Shown one piece after another: positions 67 through 9,036 of a stretch of DNA of 64,000 bases. Under the pieces are notes generated by a model. The model was not told where the DNA came from. It worked only from the letters and a program-made list of their open reading frames with translations, and did no database searches. The stretch is from a virus. Lineage: Duplodnaviria; Caudoviricetes. Position 1 is the stretch's first letter. Every line of letters starts with the position of its first letter. The position numbers and the translations under genes were made by a program. The stretch spans positions 1-64,000 of IMG/VR virus record IMGVR_UViG_3300033121_001564. One strand, 5' to 3'.

Positions 67-118
67 TACTGAGTTTTATTGCCTGTTGCCGCAAGGCGAA
101 AAGCGAGAGGCGAGAGGA

Positions 119-646
119 TCAGGGCAGTGCCGTACTCTGCGACACGATCAACTCCCCAAACGACAGAACCGCTTTCTTCCCCGCCGTCGTTCGTGCAATC
201 GCGTAGTAATACGTCCCGGCCGCCAGGGTCGTGTTGGAACTCGTCAGTGTCACGGTCACGGTGCTGTCGCCCGTGGTCGAGGAGTAGCTCAGAGTGACGC
301 CCGAGCCTCCCGTGCTCCGGGAGACGAGCGTCGCGGTTGCATCCGGCGTCTCCTTCAGCACGAATACGACCGTCTCGCCGGTCAGGTCCACGTCGTAGAC
401 CGTGTCGGTGATGACGATGTCCTCGCCGGAAAAGCAGTCCCAGGGCTGGTGTCGGGCCATGATGTCCCCCTCGAGCGAAACGGCGGTCCGAACATCCCCC
501 ACGAGATCGATGGCCGTGCCCACGTCCCCTTCGAGAGGGACCGCGGTTTGGACATCCCCCAGGAGATCGACGGGTCGCCTGGGGTCGCGCCCGGCCGACC
601 ACCAGCCGAGCGCCCAGCGCCAGAGGTCGCGAAACCCGGCAGCCAT
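119..646 (-). CDS. Virion/baseplate-associated protein (BppU-N-like C-terminal half, 10-aa repeats in N-terminal half)
   Basis: GEDIVITDTVYDVDLTGETVVFVLK...LTSSNTTLAAGTYYY resembles BppU-N-like beta domains; last gene of the minus-strand structural operon. Confidence 0.55.
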   Translation of the reverse strand: MAAGFRDLWRWALGWWSAGRDPRRPVDLLGDVQTAVPLEGDVGTAIDLVGDVRTAVSLEGDIMARHQPWDCFSGEDIVITDTVYDVDLTGETVVFVLKETPDATATLVSRSTGGSGVTLSYSSTTGDSTVTVTLTSSNTTLAAGTYYYAIARTTAGKKAVLSFGELIVSQSTALP

Positions 647-1788
647 CAGGCGGACCCCACGATCGGGTCAGCGGCGTCGTCCGTGGTGAGCGTCCAGGTG
701 CCCAGCACGGTCGAGCCGTCGCGCTTGTAGACCGTCTGGGTCGAGCCCACGACGACGGACTGGAACGACCTCTGGAGGAAACCGTAGAGGCTGTCCTTGG
801 TCAGGGTGTCGCCGTCGGAGGAAGACTCCACGCTGTCCTGGTCCCGGCGGAGGGTCACGTCGGCGATGCGCTGGGCGGCGGCGGTCGCGACCAGCACGCC
901 CGAGGTGCCAGTGTCGTCGAGGATGGCTGCGGAGTCGGACTTGATCGCGGCGAGCTGCGTGTCGAGGTTGGCACTCGCCAGCCCAACCGCGGTTCGCACT
1001 CCGGCCGCGTCGAGGTCGGTAAACCCGGTGACGCCTGTGCCTTTTACAAGGACGATGTTGGTCCCAGCGGTCAAGGTGCGCACCACGTGAGCCCAGACGT
1101 AGGTGGCGATGGACTCCTTGGCGTCGATCGAGAGCACTGACGCACTTATTGCACCATCGTCGATGAACTCCACGTCCACGGCACTGCCCACGGCCACGTC
1201 GAGCCCGGAGGAGTAGGATGACGGCCCGGACCTCGGGAGGATCGCGAACGTGGTCGTATTATCTGGCGTGGTCGTCCAGGGGAACTCGAGGCCGACCACC
1301 TTCGTCGAGCCCGTGTAGCCACTGATCGTGCGGCACTGCCCGGCGCCCGTGCCACCCGTGAGGCGTAGGAGCAGTCCGAGGTAGTGGTTATCGACGGACG
1401 ATGCGCCAGCATCCAGGGTGATGCCGGCGAGCGTGCCGGCCTGCGCGGTGCCGGTGCGGATGGCTGCCGTCTCGGAGAGGGTTGCCTCGGACGAGCCCTT
1501 CCAGTCGATCGTCGGCACGGCGACCGGCGGGCCATCCGATGCCGCTGGCGAGCCTCCCGCCTGGCGGTAGATCACCACATCGTAGAGTCCGGCCGCGATT
1601 GCTGGGAAGTCCCCGTAGTAGGCTCCGGTGGTGGACTTTTGGGTGAGCGCGCGAGCGTAACTGGTCCAGTTGGCGACGACGGGATCCTCGAACGTGGAGC
1701 CGTTCAACCAGTAGCCGTCTGACGCGCGGACGATCACCGCGTACCAGGTCGAGCCGTTCACGTCGTACTGTCGGATCTCGCCGGCCAC
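646..1788 (-). CDS. Phage virion/tail-associated protein
   Basis: GTAQAG...ITLDAGASSVDNHY...GGTGAGQCRTISGY motif common in phage tail proteins; Ser/Thr/Gly/Ala-rich; tightly packed with neighbours. Confidence 0.6.
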   Translation of the reverse strand: MAGEIRQYDVNGSTWYAVIVRASDGYWLNGSTFEDPVVANWTSYARALTQKSTTGAYYGDFPAIAAGLYDVVIYRQAGGSPAASDGPPVAVPTIDWKGSSEATLSETAAIRTGTAQAGTLAGITLDAGASSVDNHYLGLLLRLTGGTGAGQCRTISGYTGSTKVVGLEFPWTTTPDNTTTFAILPRSGPSSYSSGLDVAVGSAVDVEFIDDGAISASVLSIDAKESIATYVWAHVVRTLTAGTNIVLVKGTGVTGFTDLDAAGVRTAVGLASANLDTQLAAIKSDSAAILDDTGTSGVLVATAAAQRIADVTLRRDQDSVESSSDGDTLTKDSLYGFLQRSFQSVVVGSTQTVYKRDGSTVLGTWTLTTDDAADPIVGSA

Positions 1789-1796
1789 GGGTCACC

Positions 1797-2087
1797 TCAC
1801 GCTGCGCTGGTCGTTACCTGGATCGCGTCCACCTGCTGCTGGGCCAACTGCTGGGCCGTCGCCTCGGCCTCGGCTCGCTTTTGATTCGCGATAAACCCCC
1901 TTGTAACGTCCTTGATGAACTTGACGATCTGGGCTCGCGCAAACTCGCCGGGCGTGACCGGGTTCGTCATCATTTGCCCGGGATGGTCCGGGTCGGGAAC
2001 CGTGGGCTGGTAGCCGTAGGTCACACAGAGCGCGGTTGCGGCCAGGTCGAAGGCGGCGTCTTCGCAGGAAAGGGAAATCGTTTTCAT
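1797..2087 (-). CDS. Hypothetical phage protein (possible tail fibre accessory)
   Basis: ATG start; directly downstream of the fibre-like gene in the operon. Confidence 0.6.
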   Translation of the reverse strand: MKTISLSCEDAAFDLAATALCVTYGYQPTVPDPDHPGQMMTNPVTPGEFARAQIVKFIKDVTRGFIANQKRAEAEATAQQLAQQQVDAIQVTTSAA

Positions 2088-3879: not shown

Positions 3880-5094
3880 CTAACCGGGAGGGTGGGGAGA
3901 GGGGTAATCGTGGGCCGCGTTGACAAGTAACCGATCGGCCTCCTCGTGGTGCCGCCGGCAGAGCCAGACGACGTCGAGCCAGTGCTCGCGCTCGTAGCCC
4001 CTGTGATGGTGCCCCTCGACGGTGGGCGTGTCGCACCCGGGGTGCTGGCAGTGGGGCGGACGAACGAGTTTCCCACGTTTCAGTGCCTGATACACCATCG
4101 CATGAGCGTGAGCCTTCAATCGCACATCCGGGTCAACAGGAAGGCGAACCTTTTCGAGTTCCTCGGGAACGACACCGACCGGCGTGGTGAGGGCCAGTTC
4201 GACGGGCCACCCGTACTTCAGGCGATTGTGCAAACTACAGTGCGTCAATCCGACGTCTTCGGCCCACTCGGACATCGTCTTGGTGGCGCCGTCGAGGGTG
4301 ATCGTTCGGTTGTTGCTGCGGTTGCGGGCCTGCTGGTGGATGGTCTCCCACCGGCAGTTCTCCGGGCAGTAGTTGCCGTCGTTGTCGATGCGTCCGAGGC
4401 TGTGCCCGGGCGACGGGCGAGCGCCGAGATCGACGTAGAAGTTGACGAACCCGTCCTCGCCCAGCCACCTGTCACACACGGCGATGCCGCGTCCGCCGTA
4501 GTGCGGGTAGGACTTCTGTCCAGGGTCGGTACACCGGGCGATCATGTTCTTCCAGGCCAGCCACTCGGGCGAGTCCGTCATCCCGTGCGTCGCGTTACCG
4601 GCGCCCATGAGTGCCGCCTGCTCTGCGGCTTTCTCCCTCTGGATGCACCCGCAACTCTGGGCCTTGCCAATTATCAGGCTCCGCTGCTCGATCGTGACCG
4701 ACTTGCCGCAGTCGCAAAGGCACGACCATCGGCGATGCTTGATTCCCAGTCGCTTATCCGCCTCTGCGGACACCGTCAGTCGCCCGAACCGTCTTCCCGT
4801 CAGGTCCGTCGCAGCCTTCAGTGTGTGCCCGTGGCGGGTGGGGATGAGCCCCCTGGCGACGACGGTCCTGATGCAACCGCAACTCCTGGTGTTGCCACTC
4901 TTGACCATGTCGATGCGGACTTCCAGCTCCTTGCCGCAGTCACAACGAAAGAGCCATATCGTGCGTTTGTTCTCGAACCGCAGAAAGCGAACGGCGACGA
5001 GACTCGTGAACCGTTGCCCGGTCACGTCCTCGCGGCGACGGCCCGTTGCGGGTTGCCGGATGGGCGATGATGGAGTAGGCTGGTCGTTGACCAT
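3880..5094 (-). CDS. Free-standing HNH homing endonuclease
   Basis: Two D(V/L)TGxRFxxL...C.CDCG...SCGC repeats, WKNMIARC...YGGRGIAVCDRW, SLGRIDNDGNYCPENCRW, and a second C-terminal His/Cys module (EGHHH...WLCRRHH); GGAG RBS before ATG 5094. Confidence 0.9.
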   Translation of the reverse strand: MVNDQPTPSSPIRQPATGRRREDVTGQRFTSLVAVRFLRFENKRTIWLFRCDCGKELEVRIDMVKSGNTRSCGCIRTVVARGLIPTRHGHTLKAATDLTGRRFGRLTVSAEADKRLGIKHRRWSCLCDCGKSVTIEQRSLIIGKAQSCGCIQREKAAEQAALMGAGNATHGMTDSPEWLAWKNMIARCTDPGQKSYPHYGGRGIAVCDRWLGEDGFVNFYVDLGARPSPGHSLGRIDNDGNYCPENCRWETIHQQARNRSNNRTITLDGATKTMSEWAEDVGLTHCSLHNRLKYGWPVELALTTPVGVVPEELEKVRLPVDPDVRLKAHAHAMVYQALKRGKLVRPPHCQHPGCDTPTVEGHHHRGYEREHWLDVVWLCRRHHEEADRLLVNAAHDYPSPHPPG

Positions 5095-5224
5095 GACGTG
5101 GACTCCCAAGAAGTCTTCGTTGTGGTAAGAGCCAGGGCGGCGCGTCAACGCCTCCCTGGCTCGCTCATTATTTCACGCCATCCGTGGCGAACAAAGCCCA
5201 ACAAAATAAAAGACCATCCATGTC

Positions 5225-6615
5225 CTAAGAAACCAAACTATCGGCGCATGTGGGAGATCCGGAGTAGGGAATAACCAGATTTTTCGACGCAAGCCCGAAG
5301 AACCGTTCCATCCACGCGGCCATCACGCCCATCGTGTTCGTCGTGGTCAACGTCCAGGCGTCTCCGAGAACCGGAGTTGTGCTACCCGAGAACACGGCAA
5401 TCGACGGCCCGCCGGTGTACAGCTGGGACATGGCGGCGAACGCCAGGTCGTCGATGACGACGCTCTTGGTGTTGGTGATGGCGGTGGTGACCTTCAACTC
5501 CAGCCGTACCGTCGTCGGCAGGTTCGTCGGGGTGCGGAACGACCCGGAGAAGCTGGCGAAACTGGTGGTCTGGGCTGTCAGGTCCACCGTGAAGCTGTTC
5601 GCGGTGCCGTAGTCGTCGTTGATGACGGTGCCCGAGGAGTCCACGAGCGCGACGCGCAGCACGCCCGCGGCAGGGGCGCTGGAGATCGCCTTGATCTTGC
5701 CGTGAACGGCGTACTGGGTCGAGGCAGCCAGCCGGCCCGGAGTGCCGCCCGAGCCGGCGGTCGTCGAGGCAGTCTTGTTGAACTCCTGGTAGAGCTTGAT
5801 GAGCGTGCTGCCATCACCCGTGAGTTTGAGCGCGTTACTCTGGGTGTAGGCGTCCCCCGAGCCAGACGCGAAGATATCGGTCCCCGCCGCACCGGTCTGG
5901 TGGACCCAGTTGTCGAAATAGTTCGACGTCGTCGCCGTCTCGAAATCACCGTTGGTGAGCAGGTTGCCCCCGGTGTTGTCGATCTGGGCGTCGATGATCG
6001 AGCCGGTAAGCGTGGCACCGGAGCCGCCCGGCCAGTCGTAACCGTAGACGCTGGCGGCGGACTGCGCCCCCTGGAGCTTCCAGGACTCCCGGCGGGACGT
6101 GGCGCCGCCCGAGATCGAGTCCGCCGTGATGGACAGGCGGAGCTTCTCGGCGAGCAGGGTCTGATAGGTGCTGCCGTAGGCGTTCTTCAGGCTGACGACC
6201 GCGATGGGGTTACCCACCGGACTGCCGACGGAGGTCTGCGCGCCACACGCGACGGTGGAGGCGTTGAGCGACGCGGACGCTGCCCGCATCTGACGAATCA
6301 CCTCGGTCCAGGCCGCGGTGACGTCGGTGGAGCTGGGAAGGTTGGCGTCGAGCCGGACCTGCTCGAGGAGGATTTTTTGCGCGAGCGTTGCCAGTTGCGA
6401 CAAAAAGGACGCCTGCGACGACTGCCAGCTGGAGATGTAGGTCCAGTGCCCGTCGATGGACTTCGACACGGCCGGGGACTCGGCCGCGTAACTCTCGAGG
6501 GTCGTCCCCCGGGTCTGCATGGATGCGCCGGAGGCGACGTCGGTCGTGGCCGTGCCGCCCATCAGGGAGACGACGTTCGCGGCGGCGCCGGCGCACGCAC
6601 CGAGTCGCTTGAACA
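5225..6615 (-). CDS. Virion structural protein with CBM-like domain, exon 2 of an intron-split gene (spliced product ~473 aa)
   Basis: NLLTNGDFE...VIDDL carbohydrate-binding-like module; splicing gives MSLTFTGTGG-LFKRLG in frame. Confidence 0.8.
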
Positions 6616-6907
6616 CATTTTGTTACTCTCCGGCTTCCCGGAGGGGGCGGTCATTTCTGCCGCCCTCTGCATGTCGCCATGCAGAGCAGACTCTATCTTC
6701 ACCCTGCCATCGCTGGCGAGGGGCTCCGCGTATAGTCGTTGAGGCTCCTTACCCTGGCAAGAACCCTTGCCAGGTCGTTGCCTGCTGATTGCCTGCACCC
6801 GAAGGATTGTCACTGCCTCGCGGCGAGTACCCCGGGATACTCAGGGTTTCCAGCATACAGCGGAGTGTGATGCCAGGGATTTCGCCCTGACTGGGCCGTT
6901 CATCTGG
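6616..6907 (-). ncRNA. Group I self-splicing intron, ORF-less, 292 nt
   Basis: P ATGCTGGAAA (6856-6847), Q AATCAGCAGG (6790-6781), R TCAACGACTA (6742-6733), S AAGATAGAGTC (6699-6689); P3 CTCCGC/GCGGAG; P9 with GCGA tetraloop; U-G pair at the 5' splice site; P10; terminal G at 6616. Confidence 0.93.
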
Positions 6908-6938
6908 ACCCGCCCGTTCCCGTGAAGGTCAAACTCAT
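6908..6938 (-). CDS. Exon 1 (MSLTFTGTGG plus 1 nt) of the intron-split structural gene
   Basis: ATG at 6938 with GGAG RBS 10 nt upstream; 31 nt ending in the T that forms the P1 U-G pair. Confidence 0.85.
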
Positions 6939-7026
6939 AAATGATATCTCCAGACCATCAGGCTAGTTGTTCACCCGAAGAGTCTGGATGGTAATGTTCA
7001 CTACCGGCTTAGAGCAAAACGCAGCA

Positions 7027-7242
7027 CTACACGTTGCCGTGCGGACACTTCTTGTAGACGTGCCTGGCGCAGTTGCAGTTGTAGCAGAGGACGCGGTACT
7101 TGTCGCGGGGAAACCCCTCCTTCTTCACCCGCTTGTGCAGACCAATGGTTGCAGTCTCTCTCTCCCGGGTTCCTCCTCCATGAATGTGGTCCACAGTCAA
7201 AAATCCGGGGTTGGTTTCGCCGCAACACGCGCTCGGCGTGGG
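7027..7242 (-). pseudogene. 5'-truncated small HNH endonuclease
   Basis: ACCGETNPGFLTVDHIHGGG...FPRDKYRVLCYNCNCAR; reading frame begins right after an in-frame stop, with no start codon ahead of the Cys motif. Confidence 0.75.
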
Positions 7243-8040
7243 TCATGCGGGCACCTCGTGAGCGTGGGCAGGATGGTCCTGGCAGTAATCCTCGAGCACG
7301 CTCCGTGTCACCGGGTCTTCTCGCTCGAGGAAGAGATTCAGATAGTGGTCGTCGGGGCGGAAATGGGGAATCTCCCTCGCCGTCGCGACCGCGTTCCCCT
7401 CGGGGTTCAGGCTCGCCAGTGCCAGCCGGAAGCCGTCACCGTCGATCGTGAGTATGCGGTCGGCTGTGTACTTCCCCTCGGGCACGGGCAGGAGCCCCAG
7501 CGTCAAGGGTGTATCCTCTTCGATCAATTCGGGGGGCAGCAGCCAGCCTAAGCGGTTGCGGTCGAAACACGTCCCGAGTACCAGTCCAGGGCGGACGCAC
7601 AGGGTGCCGGGGCGGAAGTATCCCACACCCTCGCATTCGATGCAGATGCGGTCGGCCTGCGGTATGTGTGGCGGAATCATACCACTGCCGTCACAGTTCG
7701 AGCACGGCTCGTCCTCGACGAACTCGCACCACGAGAGGAGTTGCCCGCCGGTACAGGCAAGGGCGGTAGAGGGTTGCTCGTTGCACATGTAGTCGAGGCT
7801 ATCCCGGACGCTGGCGATCGCAGGGTATGTGCCATCGGCGGCACGGCTGGACGAACGGAACCCGACCTCACCCGAAACCCATCCTTGCACGCAGAGGAAT
7901 GCCCACGGGGTACAGACCAGCGTGGACCACTCCCCGCCGATGGCCGGAGGGGAGTGCCTTGTCCACCGATACCGCATCCAGTCTTTGGACGCCGTTTCGT
8001 CGATGTACCGCTCGAGCCAGACGCCAGCGAGATCGTCCAT
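7243..8040 (-). CDS. Hypothetical protein with CxxCxGxG zinc finger and TIGR02996-like C-terminal helix
   Basis: CSNCDGSG...CIECEGVG; C-terminal EREDPVTRSVLEDYCQDH. Confidence 0.65.
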   Translation of the reverse strand: MDDLAGVWLERYIDETASKDWMRYRWTRHSPPAIGGEWSTLVCTPWAFLCVQGWVSGEVGFRSSSRAADGTYPAIASVRDSLDYMCNEQPSTALACTGGQLLSWCEFVEDEPCSNCDGSGMIPPHIPQADRICIECEGVGYFRPGTLCVRPGLVLGTCFDRNRLGWLLPPELIEEDTPLTLGLLPVPEGKYTADRILTIDGDGFRLALASLNPEGNAVATAREIPHFRPDDHYLNLFLEREDPVTRSVLEDYCQDHPAHAHEVPA

Positions 8041-8043
8041 CGC

Positions 8044-9036
8044 TCACTCCTTCCCCAGGATCAGGTCAACCGCCCAGCATCCACGATAGTGTGGCCCAGG
8101 TGAGCGGAGGTGAGCCAGGGTTGGGTGAGGAATCACCTCGCCACGGAGCACATCCTCCCACGGCGGGCCGTCCGCCCGGCACTTCAGACACGACGACAGC
8201 GGAACGGGAAAGGACTTCTTCCGCACGATGGCATAGGCTCCACCGCACCTGCACCGGAGTAGTCGGCGGTTGCTCCTGCCCGTGCCTCGCGTCTGGTAGT
8301 CCGGCGCGCAGACGTAGCAGCCAATCTTTCCACCGAGCGTACCCCGCATCCCGGAGCCGTTGCACTCCGGGCAGACGCCGTCGGAATTGTCGCACCCAGC
8401 CTCTTCCAGGGCGTCAGCGAGGACGGCAAGGCGCAGAGGGTCGAGCGTGCCGTCGGGCAGCCGTTCGTGGTACGCGGCATCGGCGAGGGCGAGCGCCTGT
8501 GGAGTCAGCCAGGGTGATTGCCATATGACCTCTTCCGTTGCGCCGCTTTCAAGTGCGGCGGCGCTCATGTCTCTTGCGGCCGTCACCACCTTGCGGACGC
8601 TTGCCGGCCGGAACGGGTTGCCGATGATGTCGCGGATGGCGTTAGCAAACTGACAAGAGATTTCACCCTGGAAGTCAACCGGCTCACGGCATAAATCATA
8701 GGCCGCGCTCGCGGAGCACGAACGCAGACATGCTCTGGCAAAAACACCACTTGGACCATATATACTGTGTGCGTCTGCGAACTCTTGACGAGCAATCCCT
8801 CGGTCGGTCAATCCGTCCACTATTTGCTCTACAGACTCCACAACATCGCATACCGTTTGCCGACGAGGCACCCACCGGGAGAGCATGTGGCGTGTTGCAG
8901 CGCAGCAGAACAACCGAAATTTCCTCTCACTCGTCTGCCACAGATCACGGTAGCCCTCCAATCCTTCGCTTCCGCCGGCCAGGTAGTACACCATCCGCGC
9001 TGGCTCCCCACACGCCAGCCACTCCGCTTCCGTCAT
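8044..9036 (-). CDS. Planctomycete MTEAEWL-family protein with inserted zinc-finger module
   Basis: MTEAEWLAC, RKFRLFCCA, IRDIIGNPFRP, LAVLADALEEAGC, HLRSPGPHYRGCWAVDLILGKE; true start 9036, not 9621. Confidence 0.85.
   Translation of the reverse strand: MTEAEWLACGEPARMVYYLAGGSEGLEGYRDLWQTSERKFRLFCCAATRHMLSRWVPRRQTVCDVVESVEQIVDGLTDRGIARQEFADAHSIYGPSGVFARACLRSCSASAAYDLCREPVDFQGEISCQFANAIRDIIGNPFRPASVRKVVTAARDMSAAALESGATEEVIWQSPWLTPQALALADAAYHERLPDGTLDPLRLAVLADALEEAGCDNSDGVCPECNGSGMRGTLGGKIGCYVCAPDYQTRGTGRSNRRLLRCRCGGAYAIVRKKSFPVPLSSCLKCRADGPPWEDVLRGEVIPHPTLAHLRSPGPHYRGCWAVDLILGKE

Follow-up and report, generated by a model that had tools for sequence, protein, structure and literature searches.

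The stretch of DNA analysed here (the window) comprises the first 64 kb of the virus record IMGVR_UViG_3300033121_001564, a genome of 98,475 bp that is rated complete by CheckV. On the minus strand of the window lies a phage gene whose first ten codons are set apart from the rest by an apparent intergenic gap. An earlier note on this DNA had placed in the gap a hidden group I intron lacking an open reading frame (ORF), and had predicted that gene callers would give the protein a false start. In our analysis the locus consists of a Shine-Dalgarno-like element, a short exon 1, a predicted intron of 292 nucleotides (nt; 6907-6616) and a long exon 2 (Table 1). Nuclease genes, absent from that first reading, flank this host gene on both sides.

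When the window was compared with Rfam, the group I intron model RF00028 matched the minus strand at 6940..6667 over the full model (1-253), with 62.6 bits against a gathering score of 50 bits (E 1.6e-13). This was the check by covariance model that the earlier note had proposed, and it bears out the presence of the intron. No other Rfam family passed its threshold, either in the 64-kb window or in the entire record, and a scan of the latter gave this match as the one group I intron of the genome. Every conserved core position of the model was aligned with high posterior probability, and the core helices are all intact. The Rfam span differs from the intron, since P1 is poorly aligned by the model, which stops after P9; the exact limits were read from the sequence and then checked by script. 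A guanidine-II match at 6497-6536 was disregarded, having 16.7 bits against a gathering score of 32.

The last four bases of exon 1, GGGU, form the exon strand of P1. Together with the first base of the intron (C1) they pair with GGCCC (intron nt 11-15), and the wobble U6908.G12 stands at the 5' splice site. P10 is formed by UGAACG (intron nt 6-11) and UGUUCA of the 3' exon (6615-6610); it has 6 bp and abuts P1. The terminal G of the intron (omega-G) is 6616, intron nt 292. All 292 nt are taken up by helices and short joiners, the helices being canonical as checked by script. With 6 nt in the biggest loop, an ORF could not be accommodated; an endonuclease ORF was sought in the peripheral loops and none was found, nor was there any family match inside the 292 nt. 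The elements that had been named at first (P1, P10, P3, P7, the GNRA loop of P9 and the GGAG ribosome-binding site) are all present.

Between P7 and P3' there are just four bases, AUAC (intron nt 175-178), and P7.1/P7.2, the helices that define subgroup IA, were sought there and are not present. Since AUAC alone separates P7 from P3', the predicted structure is not of subgroup IA; it carries a P5a/b extension, P6a, P9.1 and P9.2. Rfam offers a single group I model, and the subgroup call goes no further than 'not IA'.

The fold stability of the intron exceeded that of shuffled sequences (z = -3.1). The structure drawn by hand, of 82 pairs including the P3/P7 pseudoknot, was then examined on an alignment of five copies of the intron (the related copies are described below). 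Of all cells, 88.4% were paired, compared with 33-46% in slid controls, for which the 3' partners were moved by 1-3 columns. Compensatory double changes occurred in 36 of the 82 pairs, compared with 5-11 in the slid controls, and none of 500 shuffles reached the observed values of pairing and covariation. RNAalifold predicted 61 pairs on the same five-sequence alignment, 30 of them compensatory. P3 occurs as four different sequences, each perfectly paired; P7 is invariant and hence uninformative for covariation.

Excision of 6907-6616 leaves a continuous and conserved ORF of 473 codons, in frame as had been claimed, the intron interrupting the gene one base into codon 11. The predicted spliced protein of 473 aa starts MSLTFTGTGGLFKRLG. 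The spliced message would read GGCGGGU/UGUUCAAG (the stroke marks the junction here and below), encoding MSLTFTGTGG-L-FKRLG. A homolog search with the 463-aa ORF that begins at GTG 6616 listed 120 proteins, mostly of 469-473 aa. The predicted spliced N-terminus was present in about 100 of these 120, as the motif M-[AST]-[IVL]-x-L-T-G-[ST]-G-G-L-F-[KT]-R-L-G (in outline M-x-x-x-L-T-G-x-G-G-L-F-K/T-R-L-G), and none of the proteins with that motif began at FKRLG. P0009, for example, begins MSVTLTGTGGLFKRLG. Few parts of the family are as well conserved as this motif, which persists in homologs of about 35% overall identity. L003, a related phage of 93.7 kb, has an intron-less allele with the sequence GGCGGCC/TGTTCAAG, i.e., GGC GGC C/TG TTC AAG. 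The precise position of the predicted junction is set by this homology and by the intron-less allele.

The database protein for the locus (P0001) is the 463-aa form that starts with GTG 6616, at the 3' junction, and P0027, the protein of the related locus L001, likewise begins exactly at its 3' splice junction. Because both start there, ten conserved N-terminal residues are lost, and the protein is mis-annotated in public databases in the way that had been foreseen for gene callers. Such programs cannot see compact ORF-less introns that lie a few codons behind a start codon, and these are therefore probably under-counted in uncultured phages. It may be noted that the N-termini of P0002 and P0003, the closest homologs of the host protein (62-63% identity), are short by 13-17 residues; their genes may be intron-bearing, with mis-called starts.

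Table 1. Features of the window and of loci with related introns. Helix positions are numbered from the first nucleotide of the window intron.
Feature	Position	Strand	Details
Free-standing HNH endonuclease gene	3880..5148	-	Intact-looking, 422 aa; phrog_374, E 1.2e-86
Exon 2	5225..6615	-	Stop codon 5227-5225
ORF-less group I intron (predicted)	6616..6907	-	292 nt; RF00028, canonical helices, covariation
Internal guide sequence	6893..6902	-	UGAACG for P10, GGCCC for P1; in-frame UGA 6902-6900
Exon 1	6908..6938	-	31 nt; MSLTFTGTGG plus first base of Leu codon
Shine-Dalgarno-like GGAG	6948..6951	-	9 nt before ATG 6938-6936; read from sequence
Truncated homing endonuclease remnant, endonuclease VII (Endo VII) motif/HNH	7027..7242	-	Ends 88 nt before exon 1; phrog_2255
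Cargo ORF, multi-copy family	8047-9036	-	Starts MTEAEWLACGEP
P2	intron nt 17-36
P3	intron nt 43-48/179-184		CUCCGC/GCGGAG
P4	intron nt 54-58/120-124
P5	intron nt 63-66/113-116
P5a/b	intron nt 72-110		P5b with GCGA loop, A-rich bulge
P6/6a	intron nt 125-166
P7	intron nt 171-174/216-219		GACU/AGUC
P8	intron nt 186-206		GCGA tetraloop
P9	intron nt 222-243		GCGA tetraloop
P9.1	intron nt 244-262		GAAA tetraloop
P9.2	intron nt 265-280		GAAG loop
L133, HK97-fold major capsid gene, split after 20 nt	3966-6227 with nuclease		Sister intron 4684-4957
L127, small gene with two sister introns	1026-2061		Introns 1038-1311 and 1343-1609
Upstream nuclease, window			Endo VII/HNH remnant
Upstream nuclease, L125			Intact double Endo VII/HNH, 478 aa; L125 376-1812
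Upstream nuclease, L122			NUMOD4+HNH_3+HTH
Upstream nuclease, L127		opposite	LAGLIDADG_3+HTH, 63 nt upstream
Upstream nuclease, L133			GIY-YIG; L133 3966-4523

Splicing would proceed by the usual pairings. In the folded pre-mRNA the last four exon bases would be paired (P1) with the guide close to the 5' edge of the intron, U.G marking the 5' splice site, and an external guanosine would attack that site. The guide would then position the first six bases of exon 2 (P10), and the freed 3'-OH of exon 1 would attack after the terminal G 6616, joining the exons. In unspliced RNA the frame would read MSLTFTGTGGSR followed by a stop; as this UGA lies inside the guide sequence, ribosomes on such RNA would halt after 12 codons. 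We infer from these features that splicing occurs in vivo, and the manner in which the intron moves is inferred likewise. The element at 6907-6616 is thus very probably a compact, ORF-less, self-splicing group I intron in a 473-codon phage gene, belonging to a lineage whose mobility is most likely by collaborative homing.

Three observations weigh against splicing. P1 is short, with 4 exon bp plus 1. The start codon is just 31 nt from the splice site, so that ribosome traffic could compete with P1 formation. Among the public sequencing runs checked for 6300-7100 of the window, no RNA run contained the stretch. The last point would also suit a ribozyme that is a dead relic, the gene being expressed now from GTG 6616 as the 463-aa protein and exon 1 being meaningless. 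We hold this to be very improbable. Although GTG 6616 is acceptable as a start and was picked by gene callers both here and in P0027, it has no Shine-Dalgarno sequence and sits in the single-stranded intron tail AGUAACAAAAUG. Exon 1 is still in frame behind GGAG and encodes an N-terminal motif that distant homologs keep, and the core helices are undamaged. The partner nuclease, described below, has decayed; yet the region is retained without insertions or deletions in a relative, one contig of an independent aquatic metagenome that is about 93% identical and gapless over 5689-7763, and thereby takes in the intron, exon 1 and the nuclease remnant. A scan of 5000-8200 for promoters and terminators gave nothing above shuffle expectation.

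Pieces identical to the stretch were also found in riverine and wastewater DNA runs. The DNA contigs were checked for the exon joint across the intron, and none was seen. Many short contigs from aquatic, riverine and wastewater samples match just the P7-P9 core (6667-6701) and then diverge, which points to further introns of this lineage being common there.

The host protein and its family had no match in Pfam, PHROGs or NCBIfam, and the leads from the atlas were weak. No homolog of the protein was found among 50,697 deposited phage genomes. The structure model of the family (pLDDT 90.4) has an N-terminal helical bundle followed by beta domains. In structure comparison the central domain was a jelly roll of the CBM4/16/22 type, with CBM16 2zew matched at Z 15.7. 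Matches also included the phage phi812 baseplate, the CBA120 tailspike, the Kp7 tail fibre and HFTV1 turret proteins, and one viral protein matched the whole fold (TM 0.88). Because the CBM-type jelly-roll fold is common to tail fibres and baseplates, the modelled protein may reasonably be regarded as a virion surface or glycan-binding protein. The earlier description of a virion gene agrees with this fold, the support being indirect.

The support is indirect, too, for the earlier assignment to a planctomycete phage, and comes from the cargo ORF upstream. It has 188 relatives in reference genomes; of the 80 listed, nearly all belong to Gemmataceae or other Planctomycetota, the genera including Gemmata, Limnoglobus, Fimbriiglobus and Zavarzinella. 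On the strength of this neighbouring ORF, the phage probably infects a member of Gemmataceae. One metagenome-assembled genome labelled Alcaligenaceae has many copies of the cargo ORF; the label may be wrong.

An intron at the 5' end of a virion-type gene is indeed what we find; to call one in a structural gene unusual was an overstatement, as there are published cases (PMC3706429). In Cluster J mycobacteriophages, the capsid-gene intron of LittleE and the ORF-less 265-bp minor-tail intron of BAKA/Optimus were found to be spliced by reverse transcription PCR and N-terminal sequencing, and the capsid-gene intron of Tuc2009 is cited in the same paper (PMC3706429). Group I introns in phage structural genes are therefore already known, and the window intron is a further case, in an uncultured phage, which extends them to phages probably infecting Planctomycetota. 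The two cases are alike in that the introns lie in virion structural genes of large temperate-type siphophages of high-GC hosts, that the genomes are rich in free-standing HNH genes, and that the introns were found via intron-less homologs. The BAKA/Optimus intron, moreover, is ORF-less and close in size (265 bp against 292 nt). They differ in the demonstration of splicing in Cluster J, whereas the present intron is known from sequence alone; in the position, those introns not being described at the extreme 5' end of a gene; and in the probable planctomycete host.

Synteny with L003 and L001 showed two insertions in the window. One is the free-standing HNH gene, which lies 77 nt downstream of the host gene, before the next conserved gene. 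The other, of about 2.6 kb, precedes exon 1, and its last 216 nt (7242-7027) are a nuclease ORF of 71 codons. This ORF shares 47-48% identity with either module of the intact, two-module nuclease (478 aa) that occupies the same position in L125, and it retains CC..VDHIH..R..CYNCN, with DHIH, R and CYNCN kept. However, it reads S-A-C-C-G-E where 12 intact relatives read C-x-C-C-G-E, a Ser replacing the first Zn-ligand Cys. The N-terminal domain is missing as well, and no start codon precedes the CCGE motif, the sole in-frame start, TTG 7200, being downstream of it. An in-frame TGA (7245-7243) lies directly upstream and ends an unrelated 265-aa ORF. The full motif CX2-4C ... DHxH ... R ... CX2C-N within an expressible ORF was not found at 7027-7242. 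Given the Ser for Cys, the missing domain and start, and the upstream TGA, the ORF looks like a decayed nuclease remnant and not a read-through product. The window copy of the intron is probably no longer self-mobilising, since its upstream nuclease has decayed to this remnant.

The 265-aa ORF (8040-7246) and the module 7242-7027 lie in the same frame of the minus strand with one TGA between them. An ATG (7246-7244) overlaps this TGA and opens a different frame of 81 aa, which is probably spurious. We considered the HNH module as a C-terminal domain of the 265-aa ORF, joined by read-through of the TGA, and rejected it; a stand-alone homolog of 266 aa exists and no fused homolog was found. The 265-aa ORF is unrelated to the L125 nuclease.

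Scans with patterns of the intron core recovered related copies in L001, L122, L127 (two introns), L125 (partial) and L133. Their splice sites were called by the same P1/P10 logic and tested against intron-less homologs. With the same model, RF00028, the scores were 57.3 bits for L122, 58.0 and 54.8 bits for L127, and 64.3 bits for L133. L001, from another metagenome, has the intron at the same site of the same gene family (a 51%-identical homolog), the 5' part being missing at the contig end. In L125 the intron lies at or within a base of the site in the window; this contig ends inside the intron, the 3' exon being unseen, and its site is hence taken from the shared guide sequence.

The remaining copies interrupt other genes. 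In L133, exon 1 begins with GTG and has six codons plus two bases, and the predicted N-terminus, MSDVTFF/TNFLNISYV, is that of P0165, P0167 and P0173. P0164, a database protein that is 95% identical and represents a cluster of 30 sequences, starts inside a sister intron of this kind and is mis-called. In L127 the two introns lie 31 nt apart, after codon 4 and inside codon 15, with a first exon of 12 nt and a second of 31 nt. The predicted sequence MALD/TFVAGRYSGT/YNAVDVG matches P0226 and P0230. For the host family, the atlas lead Phage_TTP_17 points to a probable tail-tube protein. Guide sequences vary from copy to copy, each fitting its local exon, and in all copies an in-frame stop occurs no more than 14 nt from where the intron starts.

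These short first exons and early stops raise the question of a regulatory device, by which splicing would gate the synthesis of late proteins, as the ribosome-binding site, the start codon and P1 are no more than 45 nt apart. Exon 1 is just 12-43 nt long in the verified copies, and the hosts, which include major capsid and probable tail-tube proteins, are high-demand late genes. In-frame stops, however, are general in bacterial and phage introns (PMC3984707), relatives without the intron manage without it, and no ligand-binding or switch element was seen, the other nearby Rfam match being far below threshold. We regard such a device as unlikely; it would be compatible with an explanation by mobility and does not exclude one.

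The five or six independent insertion sites lie 12-43 nt (perhaps about 80 nt in L122) into genes 0.5-1.4 kb long. The lineage sits in four unrelated host genes, including the HK97-fold capsid and probable tail-tube genes. This pattern of positions was not selected by the search, because the patterns used for searching covered the intron core and nothing else. In each of the five loci whose upstream flank can be seen, a gene of nuclease type precedes the interrupted gene by about 40-140 nt (Table 1), and an Endo VII-type module accompanies the intron both in the window and in the diverged L125 locus. The intron-less relative L003 lacks the intron and also the nuclease-bearing 2.6 kb, and the intron-less relative G003 has neither an intron nor a recognisable nuclease at the site. 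The predicted pattern of a lineage at the 5' ends of genes, next to free-standing nuclease genes, is what is new here beyond the first reading.

From this pattern we suggest that the lineage most likely moves by collaborative homing, at about even chances when set against an independent accumulation of selfish elements or reverse splicing. The free-standing upstream nuclease would cut the intron-less allele near the 5' end of the gene, and repair of the cut would carry in the nuclease gene along with exon 1 and the intron. The intron would then split the nuclease target, and the genome carrying it would be immune. The position within the first dozen or so codons would follow from how tightly exon 1 and the intron are linked to the nuclease gene. 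More tentatively, and with a probability somewhat below one half, we propose that the lineage is specialised for the first 4-15 or so codons of phage late or structural genes, and serves as an interchangeable 'immunity half' of two-part cassettes with any upstream nuclease. If so, collaborative homing would be a general and modular strategy, and the extreme 5' position would be explained by linkage, since a replacement exon 1 and the intron would be copied in with the nuclease gene.

Several points count against homing. In the window itself the nuclease is a truncated one, with a Zn-ligand Cys missing. The loci examined are five in number, with nuclease targets that are predicted, and in L122, the fourth host gene, the call of exon 1 (about 80 nt) is tentative. 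Because nuclease genes abound in these phages (in the window a second one lies downstream of the same gene), adjacency could partly be coincidence. It is accordingly possible, though we would not call it probable, that the intron splices but spreads by reverse splicing or plain recombination, the nucleases being independent selfish elements in the same intergenic spots. Guide sequences that differ per copy and match the local exon are what ectopic integration would leave behind, and four unrelated nuclease families mean that there is no single co-evolved pair. Random reverse splicing, however, gives no reason to expect sites that all lie so near the start of the gene. The nuclease upstream in five of five loci, the recurrence of the Endo VII-type module with the intron in L125, and the joint absence of intron and nuclease from the intron-less relative also speak for collaborative homing and against this alternative.

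Collaborative homing has a close precedent. In cyanophage S-PM2, intron-less psbA is cleaved where the intron would insert by the adjacent free-standing nuclease F-CphI, of the Endo VII-motif 'DHHRN' type, and a genome that carries the ORF-less intron is thereby protected (PMC6083498). A review puts the number of phage systems with collaborative homing at two (PMC3984707). As in S-PM2, the module beside the window intron, a remnant here and intact in L125, has the layout CX2-4C..DHxH..R..CX2C-N and matches PHROG 'endonuclease VII' families, and intron-less, nuclease-less alleles are present in relatives of the phage. In S-PM2, however, cleavage and protection were demonstrated, whereas here they are predicted from the genes and the window nuclease is truncated. 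The partner in the present lineage also varies, over four nuclease families, and the intron is always in the first codons of the downstream gene. With one ribozyme in four host genes and four nuclease families, the lineage would form a natural series on which to test how general collaborative homing is, the intron-less target alleles being already in hand. In T4, mobE / I-TevIII provides a further likeness: a free-standing HNH gene beside an intron-bearing gene mobilises an intron that is unable to move alone (PMC2790892). The window likewise has a free-standing HNH gene adjoining the intron-bearing gene; the T4 intron has a defunct endonuclease ORF, and the window intron has none.

The introns td, nrdB and nrdD of T4-type phages belong to subgroup IA2. 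In 171 deposited phage records, mostly of T4-like Escherichia and phiKZ-like Pseudomonas phages, introns match a segment of about 42 nt (J8/7-P7'-P9) of the window intron at 88-93% identity. Among the deposited phages no intron showed similarity past this core of about 42 nt, and no record covered at least 80% of the intron. The window intron shares with these a conserved core segment, and its splicing chemistry would be the same. It differs from the T4-type introns in having neither P7.1/P7.2 nor an endonuclease ORF, and in lying in a structural gene instead of a gene of nucleotide metabolism.

A 15-mer pattern, CAGCAGGCAACGACC, was too unspecific for finding further copies; the loci L004-L083 among the matches listed had no intron when examined with nhmmer. 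A match in L132 was a chance match in an integrase-like gene. Nine pattern matches from metagenomes were inspected. L125 and L127 were the only introns, L128 and L131 were chance matches, and the other five (L123, L124, L126, L129 and L130) were copies of an unrelated repeated element. In these five contigs a near-identical element of about 130 bp ends ...GGATCCAGGCTAA and the sequences diverge after it; it looks like the end of a mobile element.

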